Shown here piece by piece: positions 19,397-37,349 of a stretch of 42,156 nucleotides of DNA. The position numbers and the translations under genes are program-made. The notes under the pieces were generated by a model. The model was given only the letters and a program-made list of their open reading frames with translations. It was not told the origin of the DNA and searched no databases. Every line of letters starts with the position of its first letter. Position 1 is the stretch's first letter. Source of the stretch: Candidatus Staskawiczbacteria bacterium (GTDB lineage: Bacteria; Patescibacteriota; Minisyncoccia; Minisyncoccales; Staskawiczbacteraceae); NCBI GenBank assembly GCA_026395175.1, contig JAPLZF010000012.1, forward strand, positions 1-42,156. The letters are read 5' to 3'.

Positions 19397-20368
19397 TTAT
19401 TTTTTGTCGGGGTCGGAGTGGAATTGGTGGTGGATGTCGCGGAGGCGCTTGTTGGTTACGTGCGTGTAAATTTGCGTTGTGGCAATATTACTGTGGCCTA
19501 AAAATTCTTGAATGCTTCGAAGGTCAACTCCTTGGTTTAGTAAATCAGTAGCGTAACTGTGGCGCAATGTATGAGGTGTGGTAAAAATTGGCACGCCAGA
19601 AAGCAGAGCATATTTTTTTACCATGCGTTCTATAGAGCGTGGAGTTAGCCTGGCATCTGCATCATCCTTTTTATCACGAAAGTTTATAAACAAAGCTTTT
19701 TGGTTTGCGTGCTTAACATTGTTTCTTATTTCAAGATATTTTCTAATAAAGTTTAATGCGCGTTCAGAAAAATAAACCACGCGGGGTTTCCCGCCTTTTC
19801 CAATAACGCCCAGTTCCATATCCTTTTTATTTTTTATGCTGTTAAACTGTTCAAGATTTAAAGCAGTAAGCTCGGCAATGCGAAGTCCGGTTGAGAAAAA
19901 GGCCTCTAAAATAGCCCTGTCCCGGGTGCTAATATCATCTTTTGGCTCAATAGATGCTAAAAGCTTGCTAACCTGCTCTAAAGTAAGGAATTTTATGCTT
20001 TTTGAGCCCTTATCTGGCTTTGAGAGGGCTATTTTGTCTGGGGGCAAGGACAAGACGTCTTTTGCCACAAAGTAGCCCAAATACGCCCTTAGGGCGATTA
20101 AATAGTAGTTCTGGGTGCCTTTAGACAGCAATTTGCCGGTGGCGGGGCTAGGCTGGCGGGAAAGGTATAATCTATATGCCCAAATGTTGTCGGCGGTCAG
20201 TTGATGGGGGAGAAGTGAGCTATTTTTCTCCTGGTCTAGCCAACCAAAAAATTTTTGCAAATAATTTTTATAATTCTCCTGAGTATTTTTTCTCAAACCT
20301 TTTTCAACCTCGCAAAAGTCTAAAAAATCTTGCAGGTGGTTTATAATTGGTTTTGATGATTTCTTCAT
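19397..20368 (-). CDS. XerC/XerD-family tyrosine recombinase
   Basis: N-terminal SAM-like domain; TGLRIAEL, GKGGK, HTLRHSYAT, LGH, TTQIYTHV (complete R-K-H-R-H-Y set). Confidence 0.93.
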   Translation of the reverse strand: MKKSSKPIINHLQDFLDFCEVEKGLRKNTQENYKNYLQKFFGWLDQEKNSSLLPHQLTADNIWAYRLYLSRQPSPATGKLLSKGTQNYYLIALRAYLGYFVAKDVLSLPPDKIALSKPDKGSKSIKFLTLEQVSKLLASIEPKDDISTRDRAILEAFFSTGLRIAELTALNLEQFNSIKNKKDMELGVIGKGGKPRVVYFSERALNFIRKYLEIRNNVKHANQKALFINFRDKKDDADARLTPRSIERMVKKYALLSGVPIFTTPHTLRHSYATDLLNQGVDLRSIQEFLGHSNIATTQIYTHVTNKRLRDIHHQFHSDPDKK

Positions 20369-20885: not shown

Positions 20886-20913
20886 TTGTCGCACAATAGA
20901 CATTATATTACAA
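20886..20913 (+). other. dif-like site C (best dif candidate)
   Basis: TTGTCGCACAA-TAGACA-TTATATTACAA resembles E. coli dif GGTGCGCATAA-TGTATA-TTATGTTAAAT; overlaps the gltX stop codon. Confidence 0.6.
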
Positions 20914-22404
20914 TAATTTTATTGCTTCCTGTATTCTTTTTAAGGTTTTTTCCTTTCCCAAAATATTGGCTATTTCAAATGGGCTTGGTGAGGATTGCTT
21001 GCCAGATAATGCCACACGTAATGGCCACAGCATATAGCCTTTGTTTTTTTCCGGATAATTTTTTTCCAAATTAAATTTTTCAGATGCCAAAAATAATTCT
21101 ACTTCTATATTTTTTAATTCCCATTTTTTATTTTCAGATAATATTTTTTCAGAATATTTCAAGGAGTCTTTTATCTCACTCTCCCCCATCTTGTTCCACG
21201 ACAATAAATTTTTATCATATTTTAGTTTATCGGCAAAGAAAAAATCTGACAATTCAACAATGTCGGATAATTTTTTCATTCTGGTTTTTGAAACCTCAAT
21301 AATTTCCTGCAATTTATTTTGTGTAATTTGTCCTGCAACCAAAAGCCCTGCTTCTTTCAAATATGGCGTGCAAAGTTCTGTCAGTTTTTCTATTGGTTTT
21401 TCCCGAATATAAAAACCATTCAAAGAATCTAGTTTTTGTATATTGAATATGGCGCCCGATTTCTGCACTTTTTCTATGGAAAATTCCTTTGACAATTGCG
21501 ACAATGAAAACACTTCTTCTTCTGTTCCCGGGTTCCAGCCCAGCAAAGCCATAAAGTTAATCAGGGCCTCGGGCAAATATCCCTGGTCCTTGTATTCTGT
21601 CACAGAAACTGCTCCAAACCTCTTGCTCATTTTGGACCTGTCGGGCGCCAAAATTAAAGGCAAGTGTCCATATTCAGGGTGATAAAACCCCAAAGCCTCC
21701 TGAATTAAGAGCTGTTTTGGTGTGTTTGAAATGTGGTCTTCACCCCTTATCACGTGGCTAATTTTCATTTCAAAGTCATCAACAACAGCAGTAAAGTTAT
21801 ACAACGGAGTTTCAAAATCTTTTGCAATAATAATGTCGCCCATTAAGATTGTGTCAAACTCCACTTCTCCTCGAATTAAATCATTAAATTTTATTTTTTT
21901 ATTTTCTACGCGAAATCTTATTACAGATAGTTTTTTTTCTGCAAAGTTTTTTTCGATAATTTTTTCTGGCAGGTGCGCGCAGGTTCCGTCATATTTTGGC
22001 GCTAATCCCCTACTCATCTGCTCTTGCCTTTTATTTTCCAGTTCTTCTGTTGTGCAAAAACAAAAGTAAGCTTTATCCTCATCTAAAAGTTTTTTTAAAT
22101 ACTTTTCGTAAAGATTATTTCTTTGAGATTGCTTATATGGACCAAATTTTCCATCAATATCCGGTCCCTCGTCCCATTTAATTCCCAGCCATTTTAGACC
22201 ATCTATTATGTCCTGTACCCATCTTAATTCAGACCTTTCTTTGTCTGTGTCTTCAACACGCAAAATAAATTTGCCGTGATTTTTTTTGGCAAATAAATAA
22301 TTGAAAAGCGCGCTTCGGGCTGTGCCAATATGCAAAGCCCCTGTTGGAGACGGCGCAATTCTAACCCTTACTGGCATATTTATTTTTGTATTTTCTTTTT
22401 TCAT
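20908..22404 (-). CDS. gltX: Glutamate--tRNA ligase
   Basis: RVRIAPSPTG.LHIG, LRVEDTD, HVIRGEDH, KMSKR; ATG at 22404 (MKKENT). Confidence 0.97.
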   Translation of the reverse strand: MKKENTKINMPVRVRIAPSPTGALHIGTARSALFNYLFAKKNHGKFILRVEDTDKERSELRWVQDIIDGLKWLGIKWDEGPDIDGKFGPYKQSQRNNLYEKYLKKLLDEDKAYFCFCTTEELENKRQEQMSRGLAPKYDGTCAHLPEKIIEKNFAEKKLSVIRFRVENKKIKFNDLIRGEVEFDTILMGDIIIAKDFETPLYNFTAVVDDFEMKISHVIRGEDHISNTPKQLLIQEALGFYHPEYGHLPLILAPDRSKMSKRFGAVSVTEYKDQGYLPEALINFMALLGWNPGTEEEVFSLSQLSKEFSIEKVQKSGAIFNIQKLDSLNGFYIREKPIEKLTELCTPYLKEAGLLVAGQITQNKLQEIIEVSKTRMKKLSDIVELSDFFFADKLKYDKNLLSWNKMGESEIKDSLKYSEKILSENKKWELKNIEVELFLASEKFNLEKNYPEKNKGYMLWPLRVALSGKQSSPSPFEIANILGKEKTLKRIQEAIKLL

Positions 22405-22416
22405 ATTGTTGGTAGC

Positions 22417-22440
22417 AGTCAGGTTGTCGTACGGCAACCT
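22417..22440. repeat. Palindromic site 1
   Basis: AGTCAGGTTGTCGTACGGCAACCT; exact reverse complement of 24422-24445. Confidence 0.92.
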
Positions 22441-22630
22441 AATGCTTTATAATAACCTTTAATTTATTTAAATCAATGTCCTTTTTAAAAATTATGAAAT
22501 CTCTTCCCATCTTCATTGCCTTGATTGAACCATTGTGTATTCGTTTTAATACAGATTGCTTGCTAATTCCCAGAATAACCACTAATTCGTTTGTCGTATA
22601 AAAGTCTTTTTCTTTTATTATTTTACTCAT
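22439..22630 (-). CDS. Excisionase-like HTH (HTH_17) DNA-binding protein
   Basis: FYTTNELVVILGISKQSVLKRIHNGSIKAMKMGRDFII; ATG at 22630. Confidence 0.85.
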   Translation of the reverse strand: MSKIIKEKDFYTTNELVVILGISKQSVLKRIHNGSIKAMKMGRDFIIFKKDIDLNKLKVIIKH

Positions 22631-22637
22631 GTTTTTC

Positions 22638-22657
22638 AGGTTGTCGTACGACAACCT
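22638..22657. repeat. Palindromic site 2 (perfect 20-bp palindrome)
   Basis: AGGTTGTCGT-ACGACAACCT. Confidence 0.92.
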
Positions 22658-24401
22658 AAGCTACTTCGGTGTTGTAACACTGTTCGCAATATACTATCTC
22701 GGGACGGTCAGGAGAATAACTAGTCTCAAATTCGTTAAGGCACTTTCCACTATGATGCGAATGATTCATGTTGCACATGCACTGCCGATGCCATAATTTC
22801 ATTGGATTTCTTTGCTCTATTCTTTCTCCGTGTCTACAATTTGGACAAAGTCGTGGAATAGGAATTTTTAATTGACGATAAAATTGTAATTCTTGAGGTA
22901 CCATACGAAAAGCCTTTGAACATTGGTGTTTGCATTTGCCAGCGTGTATACAACCTATTATTTCATTAGTAATAGAATCATCAGCAACTTCGATGTCAGG
23001 GATTACCTCTGGTTGTAATGTGATATCATAATTATTTTGTTTAACATCACGCCAATTAAATCCTAATTTTTCTGCTTTATCTTTTTCAAGCGGGAAAAAT
23101 TCTTGTGCGGTGGTTTCATTGTATCCGAATGGACTCATTTTAACTGGAAAAAATTCTCCATAGCGATATATTCTACCTTTGTCATCAATATATGGGTTGT
23201 TATTCATTTGGTCTATAATAGTTTGACGCAATTGATAATATTCCTCTTGCGGGTATTTCTTATTTAGGATGCAATATTCTTTTTTATTCATGCCCATAGA
23301 ACCAAATATATTTTTGCTACCTACGCTAAATGCACTATATTCAATATCATAGCAGTTTGTAACCGCCCACCAAGCAAACCGTATACGTGATGCTTGGTCT
23401 CCCGACTGCATAACTTCATAAAGCAAAGAAGAGTTAATCCCGAAATTTATAAAATCATATGCGTCTTTTAATCCAGGAGAAGTCACAAAGGAACAAAACT
23501 TGCAATCCTCGGCATTACCCACACAATAAGAATTAAGGGTATTTTTTGAATCAAAAATATAATCTCCACTAACATTATTATTACGAATTCCGTGCATATA
23601 TTTATTAGGGAATTTCAGCCAAAATTCACGTGCCTTTCCTTTTGCACTAACGATATCATTCCAAGTGGTTGTATTTTCCTTAACAAATTTTTCAAAATCT
23701 TCTTTAGAAACTGGGTTATTATAGACGCAATACTTCTGATTCTTAAGATTAACGCAACCAAAACAATTCTGGCAGCCGATACAGTTTTTTGAAAAATATA
23801 TATTATTACATTCCTTACAGTCTTGCGAATAAAAAGTTTTATAACACTTGTTGCAGTTTATTGTGTCATAGCAAAGTTCACCCTCCTCTAACATAAGATT
23901 GTCCACGCTATCCTTTGTGTGATTAACAAAACTACCATAAGTAACATTTTCACTATAATCACTATAAGTTATCATGTAGCAATTTTTTAAATAGCTTACC
24001 ATATTTGTATAATCTGAATTCACGAGCGTTGTATAAAGACCATAAAGACTTGGAACGGGTACTTTATGCAAAAGTTCTTGAAATTGAGCAAGAAAAGGTT
24101 TTTTAGGGTTAAAATTAATTCCATAATCAGTGGCATCCCAATCATCGCCCCACCAACAGGGATTGCAATAGACTACAAATTTACTGTCTGGAGAAAAAAT
24201 AGAAATAATACTTTTACTACATTTAGCACAAGTGTGCCTATGAAGCGTCCTCTCATTACGCCAAGCCAAACGCCTTACTAAGCGACATTCAGGGCAAAAG
24301 GTTGGTGCTGGAACTTTTATTTTTTCGTAAAACGCAAAATCATCGGGCTCTATTACGAACTCCTTTTTACAATTCTGACATACCTTAATTTCTTGTTCCA
24401 T
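22656..24401 (-). CDS. Cys-rich repeat / zinc-ribbon protein of a family common in CPR; function unknown
   Basis: CQNCKKEF..PTFCPECR..RRLAWRNER, repeated CxxCxxC segments, C-terminal VYCEQCY. Confidence 0.85.
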   Translation of the reverse strand: MEQEIKVCQNCKKEFVIEPDDFAFYEKIKVPAPTFCPECRLVRRLAWRNERTLHRHTCAKCSKSIISIFSPDSKFVVYCNPCWWGDDWDATDYGINFNPKKPFLAQFQELLHKVPVPSLYGLYTTLVNSDYTNMVSYLKNCYMITYSDYSENVTYGSFVNHTKDSVDNLMLEEGELCYDTINCNKCYKTFYSQDCKECNNIYFSKNCIGCQNCFGCVNLKNQKYCVYNNPVSKEDFEKFVKENTTTWNDIVSAKGKAREFWLKFPNKYMHGIRNNNVSGDYIFDSKNTLNSYCVGNAEDCKFCSFVTSPGLKDAYDFINFGINSSLLYEVMQSGDQASRIRFAWWAVTNCYDIEYSAFSVGSKNIFGSMGMNKKEYCILNKKYPQEEYYQLRQTIIDQMNNNPYIDDKGRIYRYGEFFPVKMSPFGYNETTAQEFFPLEKDKAEKLGFNWRDVKQNNYDITLQPEVIPDIEVADDSITNEIIGCIHAGKCKHQCSKAFRMVPQELQFYRQLKIPIPRLCPNCRHGERIEQRNPMKLWHRQCMCNMNHSHHSGKCLNEFETSYSPDRPEIVYCEQCYNTEVA

Positions 24402-24421
24402 GTTTTTGTCTTGAATTATTC

Positions 24422-24445
24422 AGGTTGCCGTACGACAACCTGACT
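24422..24445. repeat. Palindromic site 3
   Basis: AGGTTGCCGTACGACAACCTGACT. Confidence 0.92.
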
Positions 24446-24469: not shown

Positions 24470-25585
24470 TTAGTCCAGCATTAAGAATTCTAAAATTTCA
24501 CGGGCAAGCGCGCGGGCTGCCAGCGGTTTTGCAAAAGCCAAAGCAGATTGCTTCATTTGCTCCAATTTTTCTTTGTGTAAAAATAACAATTGAATTTTTT
24601 CCATAAAAAAGTTTGGCGTTAAATTTTGCTGTTCTAAAACTTCTGCAGCTCCGGTTTCTGAATACGCGTAAGCATTTTTTGACTGGTGGTCACCGGCCGC
24701 AGACGGAAGCGGAATTAAAATGCTTGGCTTGCCACATGCGGCAATTTCAAAAATTGAGCCCGACCCCGAGCGCGAAATTATCAAGTCAGATGCCTTATAG
24801 GCATGTTTCATTTTTTCCTCATCTAAAAATCCAATCGGATGATAATATCGGTCTAAATCTTTTTCTTCTATGACCTGCGCTTCGGCAGATGTCTGTTTAA
24901 CATTTTGCGCGCCGGTAACATGAATTATTTCATAATCTTTTAGCAGGTCATTTAAAATTCTTAAAACAAAATCGTTAATTGTTTCTGCTCCCTGCGAGCC
25001 TCCAATTATTAAAATTATTGGTTTTGAAAGAGTCAAATTGAAAATTTCAGCGGCTTTTTGCTTGTCGCCCTCCAAAATTTCTTTTCTTATGGGGTTTCCA
25101 ATTAAAATTGTTTTTGCCGAACCAAAGTATTCTGTTTTTGGAAATGAAATAAAAATTTTCTTTGCCCATTTTGACGTAATTTGGTTGGACAAGCCCGGCA
25201 CAATGTCTGACTCGTGTAAAAATACGGGAATTCTTAAAATTCTGGCTGAATAAGTCACGGCAATAGAACCCGAGCCTCCCTTGCTAAAAATCAAGTCAGG
25301 TTTAATTGTCAAAAGCAAAAAAAAGCTTTGGATTACTCCGAATGGAATTTTAAATAAAATATCAGCAAAATTTTTAAAAGAAAAATATCTTCGTATTTTG
25401 CCGGAAATTATTTTTTTTATAATAAAGTCTTCCTGCGAAAGCAAAAGCAAACCAAATTCGTCTTTTGGGCCAATATAATAAAACTCTAAATCCTTCTTTG
25501 GGTAAATTCTCCTTGTCTCTCGGACAACAGCCACAATCGGAAAAATGTGCCCACCTGTGCCTCCTCCTGTAAATAGTATTTTCAT
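24470..25585 (-). CDS. murG: Undecaprenyl-PP-MurNAc-pentapeptide GlcNAc transferase
   Basis: TGGGTGGHIFP, HESD, GNPIR, GGSQGA, SRSG, HQSKNA. Confidence 0.96.
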   Translation of the reverse strand: MKILFTGGGTGGHIFPIVAVVRETRRIYPKKDLEFYYIGPKDEFGLLLLSQEDFIIKKIISGKIRRYFSFKNFADILFKIPFGVIQSFFLLLTIKPDLIFSKGGSGSIAVTYSARILRIPVFLHESDIVPGLSNQITSKWAKKIFISFPKTEYFGSAKTILIGNPIRKEILEGDKQKAAEIFNLTLSKPIILIIGGSQGAETINDFVLRILNDLLKDYEIIHVTGAQNVKQTSAEAQVIEEKDLDRYYHPIGFLDEEKMKHAYKASDLIISRSGSGSIFEIAACGKPSILIPLPSAAGDHQSKNAYAYSETGAAEVLEQQNLTPNFFMEKIQLLFLHKEKLEQMKQSALAFAKPLAARALAREILEFLMLD

Positions 25586-30613: not shown

Positions 30614-32086
30614 CAAATTAGAACAGCCGTTCGCCAAAGCCATTGCTCCGAACGGCTTTTTAAGTGTAAAAGTGAGGTTTTTACCGCTTAATTTGGAGTT
30701 CTGAAATAGAAAGTTGATAAACGCTCGTTTTTCCATTGGTTCAGAACTTTTGAATAGCGAATATGCCCGTTTAGCGAGGCTCATAATCATTGCAATAGTG
30801 ATATAAAATTCTTTGTCGGCTTTCTGGTGCTTTGCTATCTCGGTGTTTATGGCTGTCTGTTTTTCGTCGTATTCATTGATTTTTTTATTGTAGTCCTCTT
30901 TGGTTATCTCCTCGTCGGCTAATCTATCAAGCAAGTTGCTTTTTCTTTTTTCATATCTATCGTAATCAGCCCGCAGGACTTTCATTGAAGCCTCAAAAAA
31001 CTCACTCTTTGCGTCTTCACTCTGGGCTAAGAGCGTCATTAGGCGTGTTTTTTGCCCCTCTGTGAGGCTTATATTCCTCAATACTCTCTCTACTGGCTTA
31101 AAGAGGTCATTTTCGTTCACATAGAGCCTTTTGGCGTGTATTTTATGGCTATTGGTGCAACTATAATAATTGTATTTATTCTTTGTCCTTTCTGCCGTAA
31201 TCGTGCAACCACATTCGGCACATTTTACTAAACCCCTAAAAGCAAAAGGCTTGCAAGCGTATCTAAACGGCTTTTTATTGTAGCCATTAAAAACTTCTTG
31301 CACTCTGTTAAACAACTGTCTTGAAATTAAGGGCTGGTATTTATGCGGATATAACACGCCCTTGATTTTCATTTCGCCATAATAAAACGGGTCTCTTAAA
31401 ATAATATAAATTTGTCCTCTTGGTAGCGGTTTGGGAGTTTTTGTATTACTTCTTAATCCCAGCTTTTCCATTGTTTCTTGAATTTGTTTAGTTGAGGAAG
31501 TCCCTGTCGCATACATTTCAAACATTTTAACGATAAACTGGCTTCGCAGAGGGTCGGGGATTATGTTAGTCCTTTTTCCAGTTTCGTCGTGAACTCCCAC
31601 ATAACCAATTTTAGGTTTTGTAATCCATTCTTTGTTTTGGATTTTCTGCTCGTAGCTTCTTTTTACATCATCAGAAAGCCTGTTGAGGTATTGCTTAGCC
31701 AAAAATACTTTTGCCTCCCACATAAACATCTGGTTGCCAGTTGCATTTTTATTTACAAAAAATCCGTCTTGCACAAAATGAATTTCTAAATCCTCCTTTC
31801 TCCTCATTTCATCTAAATCAACAGCGTCCTTAAAATTCCTTGTTGCTCGGTCAACATTCTCGCAAAGTAAAACCCTAACATCTTTATGGCTTCTAATATA
31901 CGCAATAACTTCCTCAAATTTCTTTCTGATTTTATCTCCCGCACTTTCGTGAAATGAAAAAGTCTCAACTATTTCAAAGTCTTTTTTCTTTGCGTATTCC
32001 TGCAACCTCCTTATTTGAGCGGGGAGTGAGTGTCCTTGCTCCTCCTGCTCCTTTGTTGAAACTCTGGCGAGTATTACGGCTTTCAT
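30575..32086 (-). CDS. Large serine recombinase (integrase)
   Basis: ARVSTKEQ catalytic motif, VDRATRN, recombinase domain (DPFYYG, HKYQPLIS), zinc ribbon CAECG...YYSC, coiled coil; 3' end reads through antisense tRNA-Lys. Confidence 0.95.
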   Translation of the reverse strand: MKAVILARVSTKEQEEQGHSLPAQIRRLQEYAKKKDFEIVETFSFHESAGDKIRKKFEEVIAYIRSHKDVRVLLCENVDRATRNFKDAVDLDEMRRKEDLEIHFVQDGFFVNKNATGNQMFMWEAKVFLAKQYLNRLSDDVKRSYEQKIQNKEWITKPKIGYVGVHDETGKRTNIIPDPLRSQFIVKMFEMYATGTSSTKQIQETMEKLGLRSNTKTPKPLPRGQIYIILRDPFYYGEMKIKGVLYPHKYQPLISRQLFNRVQEVFNGYNKKPFRYACKPFAFRGLVKCAECGCTITAERTKNKYNYYSCTNSHKIHAKRLYVNENDLFKPVERVLRNISLTEGQKTRLMTLLAQSEDAKSEFFEASMKVLRADYDRYEKRKSNLLDRLADEEITKEDYNKKINEYDEKQTAINTEIAKHQKADKEFYITIAMIMSLAKRAYSLFKSSEPMEKRAFINFLFQNSKLSGKNLTFTLKKPFGAMALANGCSNLCPRRDSNSKPIP

Positions 32087-35297: not shown

Positions 35298-35480
35298 TTA
35301 TTTTTTTGTTTTTACCTTATTAAGAAAATTATTAAACTCCTCTTTGTCTATTCTAAACTCCTTGCCGATTTTATAGGCTTTTACTTTTTTCCGCTTAATG
35401 TAGCGGTAAATTGTCATTGTTGAAACCCTTAGCCTTTCCGCCAACTCCTCAACAAGATAAAATTCTTTTTCTTGTGCCAT
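35298..35480 (-). CDS. Excisionase-like HTH protein
   Basis: FYLVEELAERLRVSTMTIYRYIKRKKVKAYKIGKEFRI. Confidence 0.88.
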   Translation of the reverse strand: MAQEKEFYLVEELAERLRVSTMTIYRYIKRKKVKAYKIGKEFRIDKEEFNNFLNKVKTKK

Positions 35481-35483
35481 ATT

Positions 35484-36221: not shown

Positions 36222-37349
36222 TTACTTGCCTAAGTCATTATTTTTAATAGTTTCTACAATAAACTCCGCTAATTCTTTTTTGTTAAAGCCATACTTTACC
36301 TCTACATTTTTACCCTCAAAATCAACATTTCTTATTATCTCAATTTGTTTATCGGCTTCAAACCTCCCATATCCGCCAGAGCCAAAAGTCGTCCCAGTAT
36401 ATTTATGCCCGAAATTTTGGCTAAACGCTCGTTTCTGCTCCTCTGTTAGAGGCTGTTTTGATATTTGCCTAACTAATAAATGCCTAAAAGTGTGCGGGTG
36501 GTAATACTTAACTCCCGCATTTGTAAATCTTTTTTCAAAAATTTTCCTTAACGCTGTTTGTGCTTTCATAAATACTGGCTCAACTTTTCCTGTGTTGTAA
36601 TAACCTATATTATCTTTTCCGTTTTCAATTTTAGTAGCGGGAAATATAGGATTTTCTGGCGTAAATCCTCTTTGCTTTTGCAAGTAATCATACCATTGCA
36701 TAAAATAAGTTAGGGTCTCTTTGTAGAAAAAGGGGATTAAGACAGAGGTTATATTTGTTGAATTTTTTGTTTTTACTCCTAATTCAGTATGTTGGTATAA
36801 AACCTGTTTCTCTCGGTCAAAACTTTTCATTGGGAGCGTCATAATAGCCTCAATTCTCGCCCCTGTCATAACAGCCAAAGAAAGCAAAGCCTTGTCTCTC
36901 ATTTCAATCTCGTTCTCTCCCTTGATATTCTCAATGGCTTTTTTAACATCTTGCAAGTCGGGGCATTTTATATCTTTTGGCTGTATGGCTTCCTGTGTTT
37001 CCTTTTTTGTTAAATGCAGATAATCAACGGCATTGCTATCAATTCTCTTATAGCCCTTTTGCTTAGATAACCAATCAAAAAATAGCTTTATAAATCTTAA
37101 AATATGATAGCTGTAAGTTAGGCTAACATTCTCTTGGGAGCGGACTTTTTTCTTATTCCTTAGCCAGTTGGTAAATTCAACCGCTATTGTTTCGTTAAAA
37201 TTCTTAAAGTCTTTATAATCGGTAAAATCCTCCCATAAACAAATCGCATTTTCGTATCGGTTAACGCTTTTAGGTGAAAATTGTTTCTTAAATCTAAGCC
37301 ATTCATAAAATTTCCTTTTTATCTGCTCATTTTTATAAGTTGTTTTCAT
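36222..37349 (-). CDS. Tyrosine recombinase / phage-integrase family protein
   Basis: RDKALL...TGARIEA, KTK, HPHTFRH, NFGH...GYG. Confidence 0.9.
   Translation of the reverse strand: MKTTYKNEQIKRKFYEWLRFKKQFSPKSVNRYENAICLWEDFTDYKDFKNFNETIAVEFTNWLRNKKKVRSQENVSLTYSYHILRFIKLFFDWLSKQKGYKRIDSNAVDYLHLTKKETQEAIQPKDIKCPDLQDVKKAIENIKGENEIEMRDKALLSLAVMTGARIEAIMTLPMKSFDREKQVLYQHTELGVKTKNSTNITSVLIPFFYKETLTYFMQWYDYLQKQRGFTPENPIFPATKIENGKDNIGYYNTGKVEPVFMKAQTALRKIFEKRFTNAGVKYYHPHTFRHLLVRQISKQPLTEEQKRAFSQNFGHKYTGTTFGSGGYGRFEADKQIEIIRNVDFEGKNVEVKYGFNKKELAEFIVETIKNNDLGK

Follow-up and report, generated by a model that had tools for sequence, protein, structure and literature searches.

The subject of this analysis is a 2.0-kb segment between murG and gltX on a 42,156-nt contig (JAPLZF010000012.1 of assembly GCA_026395175.1; the whole contig is called the window below) from a Candidatus Staskawiczbacteria bacterium. 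Staskawiczbacteria are a lineage of the candidate phyla radiation (CPR), or Patescibacteria, and the window is contig C13 of a 744-kb genome (G000) with 37.5% G+C in 19 contigs. The segment holds a gene for a cysteine-rich (Cys-rich) protein and a gene for a 63-aa helix-turn-helix (HTH) protein of the HTH_17 family, and three copies of a short palindrome separate these two genes from each other and from their neighbours. We judge it fairly probable that the palindromes are DNA-binding sites (operators) of the enclosed HTH_17 protein; the segment itself is an accessory insertion. The regulator would probably act on the gene that encodes it and on those that follow the other copies of the site, and the best-supported description of the HTH gene with its sites (the module) and of its neighbours is that they behave as relocatable accessory units in housekeeping operons. 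The first-pass annotation, made by a model from the letters of the window, had left three options. Operators are the best supported of the three, because the module recurs, its half-site changes with the helix of the protein, and the wider family has an upstream palindrome; gene cassettes are partly supported, and an invertible or non-autonomous element is without support.

The palindrome AGGTTGYCGTACGRCAACCT was found by pattern search three times in the window, at 22421-22440 (site 1), 22638-22657 (site 2) and 24422-24441 (site 3), with no further match in the window when up to three mismatches were allowed and none in 100 dinucleotide shuffles. The palindromes are real, non-random and lineage-specific. 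On the minus strand the order is murG, site 3, the Cys-rich gene, site 2, the HTH_17 gene, site 1 and gltX. Site 3 with its extension (AGGTTGCCGTACGACAACCT plus GACT, 24422-24445) lies 28 nt past the stop codon of murG and 20 nt ahead of the ATG of the Cys-rich gene (22656-24401, minus strand, 581 aa, without a Pfam family). Site 2 (AGGTTGTCGTACGACAACCT, a perfect palindrome) lies 7 nt ahead of the ATG of the HTH_17 gene (22439-22630, minus strand, PF12728, with its true ATG at 22630), and site 1 (AGTC plus AGGTTGTCGTACGGCAACCT, 22417-22440) lies 16 nt ahead of the ATG of gltX. The TAG stop codons of the two inner genes each share 2 nt with the site that follows: 22656-22658 of the Cys-rich gene with site 2, and 22439-22441 of the HTH gene with site 1. 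The first pass had described all of this, namely the three sites with a perfect palindrome at 22638, the order of genes and sites, the two stop codon overlaps and gaps of 7-20 nt between site and ATG; the positions were reproduced exactly, and open reading frames, Pfam matches and measured distances agree with it. Its remark that the outer sites form a 24-bp inverted pair is also exact, as 22417-22440 is the reverse complement of 24422-24445 over 24 nt. However, the extra AGTC/GACT is part of the extended consensus of the family and was found at other loci too, so the identity of the outer sites does not mark a special terminal repeat. The lone deviations of sites 1 and 3 from a perfect palindrome both point inward. 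A crossover recorded in these chimeric half-sites was considered and rejected, since the difference is a single transition and is indistinguishable from a point mutation.

The insertion was recognised by comparing the DNA upstream of gltX, which was located in all 26 genomes of the genus. The neighbours in the window are murG (24470-25585, minus strand, Glyco_tran_28_C 3.4e-37) on the upstream side and gltX (20908-22404, minus strand, tRNA-synt_1c 7.4e-100) on the downstream side, both housekeeping genes. The junction could be read in 22 relatives, with G006, G002 and G022 left out as their contigs end there. Among these, murG is followed by gltX within 1-41 nt and without a palindrome in 17, and two more (G009 and G014) have a longer spacer without the motif. 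The 2.0-kb segment is thus an accessory insertion in a normally tight junction. No target-site duplication of the segment was found at the junction. The junction of G010 holds a different palindrome and other genes. Those of G005 and G024 each hold one Cys-rich gene, with 45% and 44% identity to that of the window by blastp, followed by one palindrome of the family. In G024 this is a GGTTAAC-type site. In G005 it is GGTTGTCGTACGACAACC, identical to site 2 of the window; the HTH gene is absent there, and the single site stands exactly where the window has site, HTH gene and site. The first pass had proposed that a single site in empty junctions, or different genes between the sites, would speak for cassettes. 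Different genes and a variable content were indeed found, but the empty junctions carry no site.

With the HTH protein of the window as query, matches were found in 14 of the 26 genus genomes, at 33 places and up to five per genome, and 57 more loci were added from one genome per species across the Genome Taxonomy Database (GTDB). The short forms comprise 35 distinct proteins of 55-72 aa, and 32 of them have a palindrome just upstream of their own start codon. It stands on both flanks of the gene in 24 cases, upstream only in eight, downstream only in one and is missing in two; in one of the 24, the downstream palindrome is unrelated and AT-only. The flanking palindromes are 18-24 bp long and perfect or near-perfect, and they vary between paralogue groups while being the same on both flanks of a gene. 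Besides murG/gltX in the window, the module occupies the folA-gatB junction in G015 (in the window's genome gatB follows folA directly), the atpA-atpG junction in G010, the space from cutA to a Cys-rich gene at locus L090, and a position after dprA at L092 and L094. As judged from these positions, the module has moved between loci over evolutionary time. Among 35 longer relatives (84-243 aa, from many CPR lineages), a TTAAC-type palindrome lies 5-50 nt before the ATG in 20, and a downstream palindrome is present in only one. This difference indicates that a palindrome upstream of the gene, the arrangement of autoregulated repressors, is ancestral, and that the second copy downstream and the copies dispersed elsewhere are peculiar to the short forms.

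A site class could be assigned to 33 short-form proteins, and their predicted recognition helices and half-sites are paired five to five. Proteins with the helix S[KR]QSVLKR have the half-site GGTTG[TC]C, those with SKVSVLKR have GGTTACC, those with SRI[SA]VF[KR]R have GGTTAAC (class C), those with SR[IV]S[VL]FYR have TC[TC]TAAC and those with SR[VM]AVLKR have GGTTATC (class E). There is no exception among the 33 bar one hybrid, G024_C13 of the SKVSVLKR group, which has GGTTATC/GGTAACC on both flanks. The four half-sites of any one module change jointly. Replacement of K by Y in the helix accompanies the switch of the outer GG to TC, and the residue after S[KR] accompanies the inner triplet. 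The columns which are both diagnostic of a class and conserved within it are 25, 28, 29 and 31, all in the predicted helix 24-33, plus column 54. The last of these (L54 in the window) is a class-specific L/I switch, located not in the DNA-reading helix but where the C-terminal helix begins, and might prevent mixed dimers of paralogues. A mixed arrangement of sites was observed at L102/L171 (MHPU01000013 and a metagenome contig), where a class C HTH gene has a class C site upstream and a class A site downstream. This class A site precedes a Cys-rich gene and is identical to site 2 of the window, which shows that a gene of one class may be followed by a site of a different class.

The HTH protein matches PF12728 (HTH_17) over residues 11-54 with 32.5 bits (cut-off 27) and an E-value of 1e-07. 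Its predicted structure (predicted local distance difference test, pLDDT, 80) consists of a strand at residues 10-12, helices at 13-20 and 24-33, strands at 38-41 and 44-48, and a helix at 54-62. The order of a winged helix (strand, two helices, beta hairpin) is thus present in the model, with residues 24-33 (KQSVLKRIHN) as the predicted recognition helix. The best Foldseek matches are all DNA-bound winged-helix proteins, namely RacA (5i44), HiNmlR (5d90), Pukovnik Xis (4j2n), BldC (6ama) and RdfS (8dgl); they are weak, with E-values of 0.015-0.12 and TM-scores of about 0.6. A search of the PDB by sequence with a profile of the HTH protein gave nothing significant (best E 0.21), and a homodimer prediction, with a score of 0.01 (mark 0.42), has no bearing either way. 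From the model, the protein is predicted to be a MerR/excisionase-like winged helix. MerR-type activators act on a dyad in an over-long (19-20 bp) spacer between the -35 and -10 elements and have a C-terminal coiled coil and an effector domain. The protein of the window has only 63 aa, and the promoter scan gave none whose spacer contains the dyad. As for excisionases, no integrase was found in or beside the module in the window or at L015, L020 and L062. The nearest tyrosine recombinase (19397-20368) is also beside gltX in G005, where the HTH gene is absent.

If the sites are operators, each half-site, (AGTC)AGGTTGYC, would be read by one subunit of a dimer, and the bound protein would gate the transcription entering the gene behind each site. 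Site 2 would then mediate negative autoregulation of the HTH gene, site 3 would control the Cys-rich gene, and site 1 would control, or insulate against, read-through into gltX. The narrow motif GGTTGYCRTAYGRCAACC has six copies in this genome, three of them in the window. The others are two copies on contig C4 (C4:29700 and C4:31140), on either side of a trio of small genes that lies upstream of tig, and a copy on C6 (C6:25143) that precedes the gene of a DNA methyltransferase; with them, the regulator may govern a small regulon of accessory genes. The narrow motif was found in 6 of 24 other genomes of the genus and in none of 16 genomes from the other families of the order. The generalised motif GGTTRNCN{4,5}GNYAACC gave 131 forward matches in 19 of the 26 genus genomes, with three matches of the reversed control. 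Their number is 0-22 per genome, with 12 in the genome of the window, and seven of the 26 have none. All ten genus genomes with at least five sites have an HTH match, and where such a match is lacking the number of sites is 0-4. Among the 74 sites listed, 16 adjoin an HTH gene and 15 a Cys-rich gene, with three of them next to both. The distances from stop codon to site (median 24 nt) and from site to ATG (median 30 nt) are too similar to assign a site to a gene. The first pass had stated that its proposals would fall if the motif were scattered between unrelated genes while the content between murG and gltX was invariant. The motif is indeed dispersed in genome and genus, but the content of the junction varies.

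Several facts weigh against reading the sites as operators. No promoter was located in the region of the sites, where 14 promoter-like matches, none convincingly placed, compare with 9.0 +/- 2.4 in shuffles. Site 2 ends only 7 nt before the ATG, and a site stands before almost every gene of the arrays at L169, L175 and L103, which would be needless for a simple operon repressor. Furthermore, 46 of the 74 listed sites adjoin neither an HTH nor a Cys-rich gene. By our tally, 10 of 15 sites in G005, all eight in G013 and all five in G002 belong to a class without a cognate HTH in the genome, and G041, G020, G018, G017 and G014 have 1-4 sites without an HTH match at E <= 1e-3. These orphan sites may be read by a cross-reacting paralogue, or may be relics or excision scars. 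G009 also has no HTH match, and its single motif match is non-palindromic and probably due to chance. Finally, descent cannot be separated at all from the covariation of helix and half-site: every class forms a single clade, the tree shows five changes, and the number of effective independent events is therefore about 4-5. Descent alone does not explain, however, that the half-sites of a module have all four changed in the same way. As for terminators, the calls of this type at sites 1 and 3 fall on the plus strand, whereas the genes are on the minus strand.

In a rival reading, which is rather unlikely in our view, the palindromes would serve a gene-cassette system as its recombination junctions, with a function similar to that of the attC sites of integrons or the pdif modules of Acinetobacter. 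A gene with its site would be excised and re-inserted at a site of the same class, and the cassette-borne HTH protein would be a site-recognition or directionality factor for a host recombinase, for example of the Xer type. The murG-gltX junction, which is empty in 17 of 22 relatives and filled by different units in G000, G005 and G024, with a lone copy of site 2 in G005 in place of site-HTH-site, is suggestive of such a system, but the empty junctions lack a site and the inserted blocks are not consistently bounded on both sides. Arrays in which sites and genes alternate were found at L169 (four sites), L175 (five), L103 and L015 (three each), and accessory families F3 and F6-F9 stand in varying order relative to the HTH gene between genomes, all co-oriented. 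However, no attC-like structure was seen and no integrase is adjacent to the arrays; the tyrosine recombinases at C13:19448, C15:23809 and C13:36462 adjoin none of them. Across the genomes compared, the sites are not accompanied by a dedicated recombinase: the search for serine recombinases found none in G024 (22 sites) or G010 (eight sites) but ten in G022, which has no sites, and the Y1 transposases of the window's genome go with another palindrome. The presence of the module at five or more loci (murG/gltX, folA/gatB, atpA/atpG, cutA/Cys-rich gene and dprA) and the frequent supply of the preceding gene's stop codon by the site fit cassettes as well. On the other hand, a genome has several arm classes, which a single host recombinase is not expected to read, and the sites are perfect palindromes of 18-24 bp without an asymmetric core. 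The fold family of the HTH protein includes recombination directionality factors (RDFs), yet in the wider HTH family the sites are upstream only. Contigs of other organisms from three sequencing runs match the HTH gene with site 2 and diverge at 22659-22664, which also favours cassettes. The sequencing-run contigs gave no joint at any site, and one of 3,073 nt (21270-24342) runs through sites 1 and 2 without a change; as rare excised or inverted forms would not show in contigs, this does not count against recombination. The cassette option of the first pass is therefore partly upheld by the empty junctions, the single site of G005 and the shuffled arrays, and it is weakened by the empty junctions being site-less and by the absence of a co-occurring recombinase. 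A more specific form, a so far undescribed CPR cassette system without its own integrase, in which units of gene and site move within a class set by a cassette-borne HTH protein of about 60 aa and are joined by a host enzyme such as Xer, is unlikely. If it were true, the orphan sites would be excision scars, like solo long terminal repeats (LTRs).

We hold it for quite improbable that the palindromes are dispersed elements like the repetitive extragenic palindromic (REP) sequences, or RNA hairpins that would stabilise the mRNA, direct its processing or couple translation by being opened when a ribosome terminates on the overlapping TAG, with the HTH link being mere hitch-hiking. The two stop codons do overlap the 5' foot of a hairpin which ends 7-16 nt before the next ATG, and 85 of 112 distinct sites lie between co-directional genes. 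Against a role in RNA, the sites are perfect through the centre and loopless, their imperfections are hybrids of two half-site variants without a strand-specific G-U pattern, and the pair that is G-U in site 3 is a C-A mismatch in site 1 when read on the mRNA strand. The 131 matches in intergenic spacers of 19 genomes (control 3), most of the listed ones (46/74) away from HTH and Cys-rich genes, would suit dispersed elements, but with 0-22 per genome the copy number is low, and the four half-sites of a module change in step with the helix of the enclosed protein. Different palindromes do stand side by side, at C4:31087-31222 and at G013:C15:51199/51237, and at least three other palindrome families exist in the genome. 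The Y1 genes, which resemble the REP-associated tyrosine transposases (RAYTs), are associated with a different palindrome, however. Matches to Y1_Tnp were found at C16:153851 and C19:54897, the palindrome beside the latter (C19:54546) belongs to the GGTGGGACGTC family, and the scan with the generalised motif gave no GGTT..AACC site on C16 or C19. Least credible of all, and in our estimate highly improbable, is that the 2,029-bp segment 22417-24445 is a single composite or invertible element with 24-bp terminal inverted repeats. The outer sites are exact inverted copies over 24 nt with their single deviations facing inward, but their AGTC is the family consensus and was seen at unrelated loci. 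There is no target-site duplication and no transposase inside the segment, its units occur singly or in other combinations elsewhere, and a contig of another run spans 21270-24342 unchanged. The first-pass option of an invertible or non-autonomous element, built on the 24-bp pair, is thereby left unsupported.

The operator reading was compared with known systems. BldC and the Xis/RDF proteins bind direct repeats head-to-tail as multimers, whereas the sites described here are perfect inverted repeats, which imply a symmetric dimer, as with RacA or MerR. Small MerR/Xis-like winged-helix proteins are represented by BldC of Streptomyces (PMC5859096, 6ama), the mycobacteriophage protein Xis (4j2n), Gp36 of D29 (PMC12266134) and RdfS (PMC11963761, 8dgl). 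Like BldC, the N-terminal domain of RacA, Xis and RdfS, the protein of the window would be a winged helix of the beta-alpha-alpha-beta-beta order and a member of HTH_17, in the range of 55-70 aa and without an effector domain. Some members of the BldC/Xis group are transcription regulators and not only excisionases. Unlike Xis and the RDFs, the protein has no integrase or att partner here and its gene is bracketed by its own sites. Its sequence similarity to solved structures is insignificant. Autoregulated repressors with a palindromic operator upstream of their own gene are a second known type, for example antitoxins and the C proteins of restriction-modification systems. The likeness lies in a palindrome of 18-24 bp located 5-50 nt before the ATG of the regulator and in an operator which co-varies with the recognition helix. 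The differences are the second copy directly behind the gene in 24 of 35 short forms, the copies before neighbouring accessory genes, and the placement of the module in housekeeping operons at loci which differ by species.

With regard to mobile systems, chromosomal dif is present in every genome and pdif sites are related to dif. Unlike dif, the arms described here are symmetric and fall into at least five classes, and the motif was not found in 7 of the 26 genus genomes. Integron attC cassettes and Acinetobacter pdif/dif modules (PMC6449649, PMC13141974) resemble the present system in that co-oriented accessory genes are separated by short repeated palindromes, in shuffled order, with sites abutting or overlapping the stop codons. 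Unlike in integrons, there is no IntI or attI, and the sites are perfect palindromes of 18-24 bp versus imperfect attC sites of 57-141 bp. Neither are they the asymmetric 28-bp XerC/XerD sites of pdif, with two different 11-bp arms and a 6-bp core. Furthermore, unlike in both systems, several site classes exist per genome, each tied to a small HTH gene, and no recombination event was observed. The REP/RAYT system is similar in having a protein gene flanked by its own palindromes, with copies dispersed between genes and a class matched to the clade. It differs in that the protein enclosed here is a 63-aa HTH without a catalytic domain, the copy number is low and the Y1 genes pair with another palindrome.

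In literature searched at the level of titles and abstracts, on HTH_17 with palindromes and on CPR/Staskawiczbacteria, no description of this arrangement was found. CPR bacteria have few recognisable transcription factors and cannot be grown alone, and to our knowledge almost nothing is known about gene regulation and genome plasticity in them. The present finding offers a family of minimal regulators with a readable predicted protein-DNA code of five helix variants and five half-sites, together with predicted target sites and a recurring architecture, in which the regulator gene lies between its own sites. Should the sites prove to be recombination junctions as well, they would represent a novel means by which accessory genes are shuffled within essential operons. 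The Cys-rich family, which is hugely expanded, is flagged as a frequent neighbour of the sites.

The Cys-rich protein carries CxxC motifs like those of zinc ribbons at its two ends, and its middle part weakly resembles a beta-solenoid. It could be assigned to no Pfam family, and Foldseek gave no match at E <= 0.001. The only rows from VIA-align were weak ones to beta-solenoids (Z 5-6.6), covering residues 120-250 in a low-confidence part of the model, and the matches in the Atlas were confined to unnamed 'zinc-binding' clusters. At least 6,425 proteins among 8,000 scored candidates match the family at E <= 0.001; all are hypothetical, they come from many Patescibacteria lineages, and the CxxC pairs at both ends are invariant in the family. 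It was found in 18 of the 26 genus genomes, with up to 23 matches per genome and frequent tandem arrays, and HTH modules frequently adjoin its genes. The expansion of these proteins of 560-600 aa is huge, as 23 matches fall in a genome of 800 kb, and tandem arrays of 8-12 genes stand beside pgk and cutA. Further copies were observed at G000:C2:13688-17231, G000:C18:224-2011, G017:C10:13925-39827 and G005:C1:1-15505.

Other palindromes were also noted. In one spacer of the window's genome (G000:C4:31087-31222), three stand side by side, namely AGGTTAACACTTGTTAACCT, CAGGTTGTCATATGACAACCTG and a 32-nt member of the TTTTTGCC..GGCAAAAA family. At least three further families exist in this genome, GGTGGGACGTCsGACGTCCCACC (with one copy beside the Y1 gene at C19:54897), GCCTGCCTGCCGGCAGGCAGGC and GTTTTTTGGCTCGAGCCAAAAAAC, with examples at C19:54546, C2:49917, C3:3568 and C19:7310. 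In total, the genome has 39 GC-containing palindromes with a stem of at least 9, versus 4-7 in shuffles. The palindrome ACCGCTTAAGCGGT was found as 2-5 tandem repeats 150-235 nt upstream of class C HTH genes, with clusters at L037, L035 and L048 (G003:C5, G011:C26 and G024:C7).

Traces of other insertions were observed as well. In the window's genome, the atpA-atpG spacer of about 800 nt (G000:C2:22400-23200) contains, on the opposite strand, a stretch resembling a tRNA, and the first nine or so codons of atpG (MESPQNIKK) occur in it a second time, as if an element had inserted at the 5' end of this gene and left a scar. Within the window, a large serine recombinase (31631-32080, in a 506-aa frame), a distant HTH_17 paralogue with 36% identity (35310-35483) and a tyrosine integrase (36462-36950, in a 381-aa frame) lie on the minus strand within 6 kb, and this cluster may be an integrated element.

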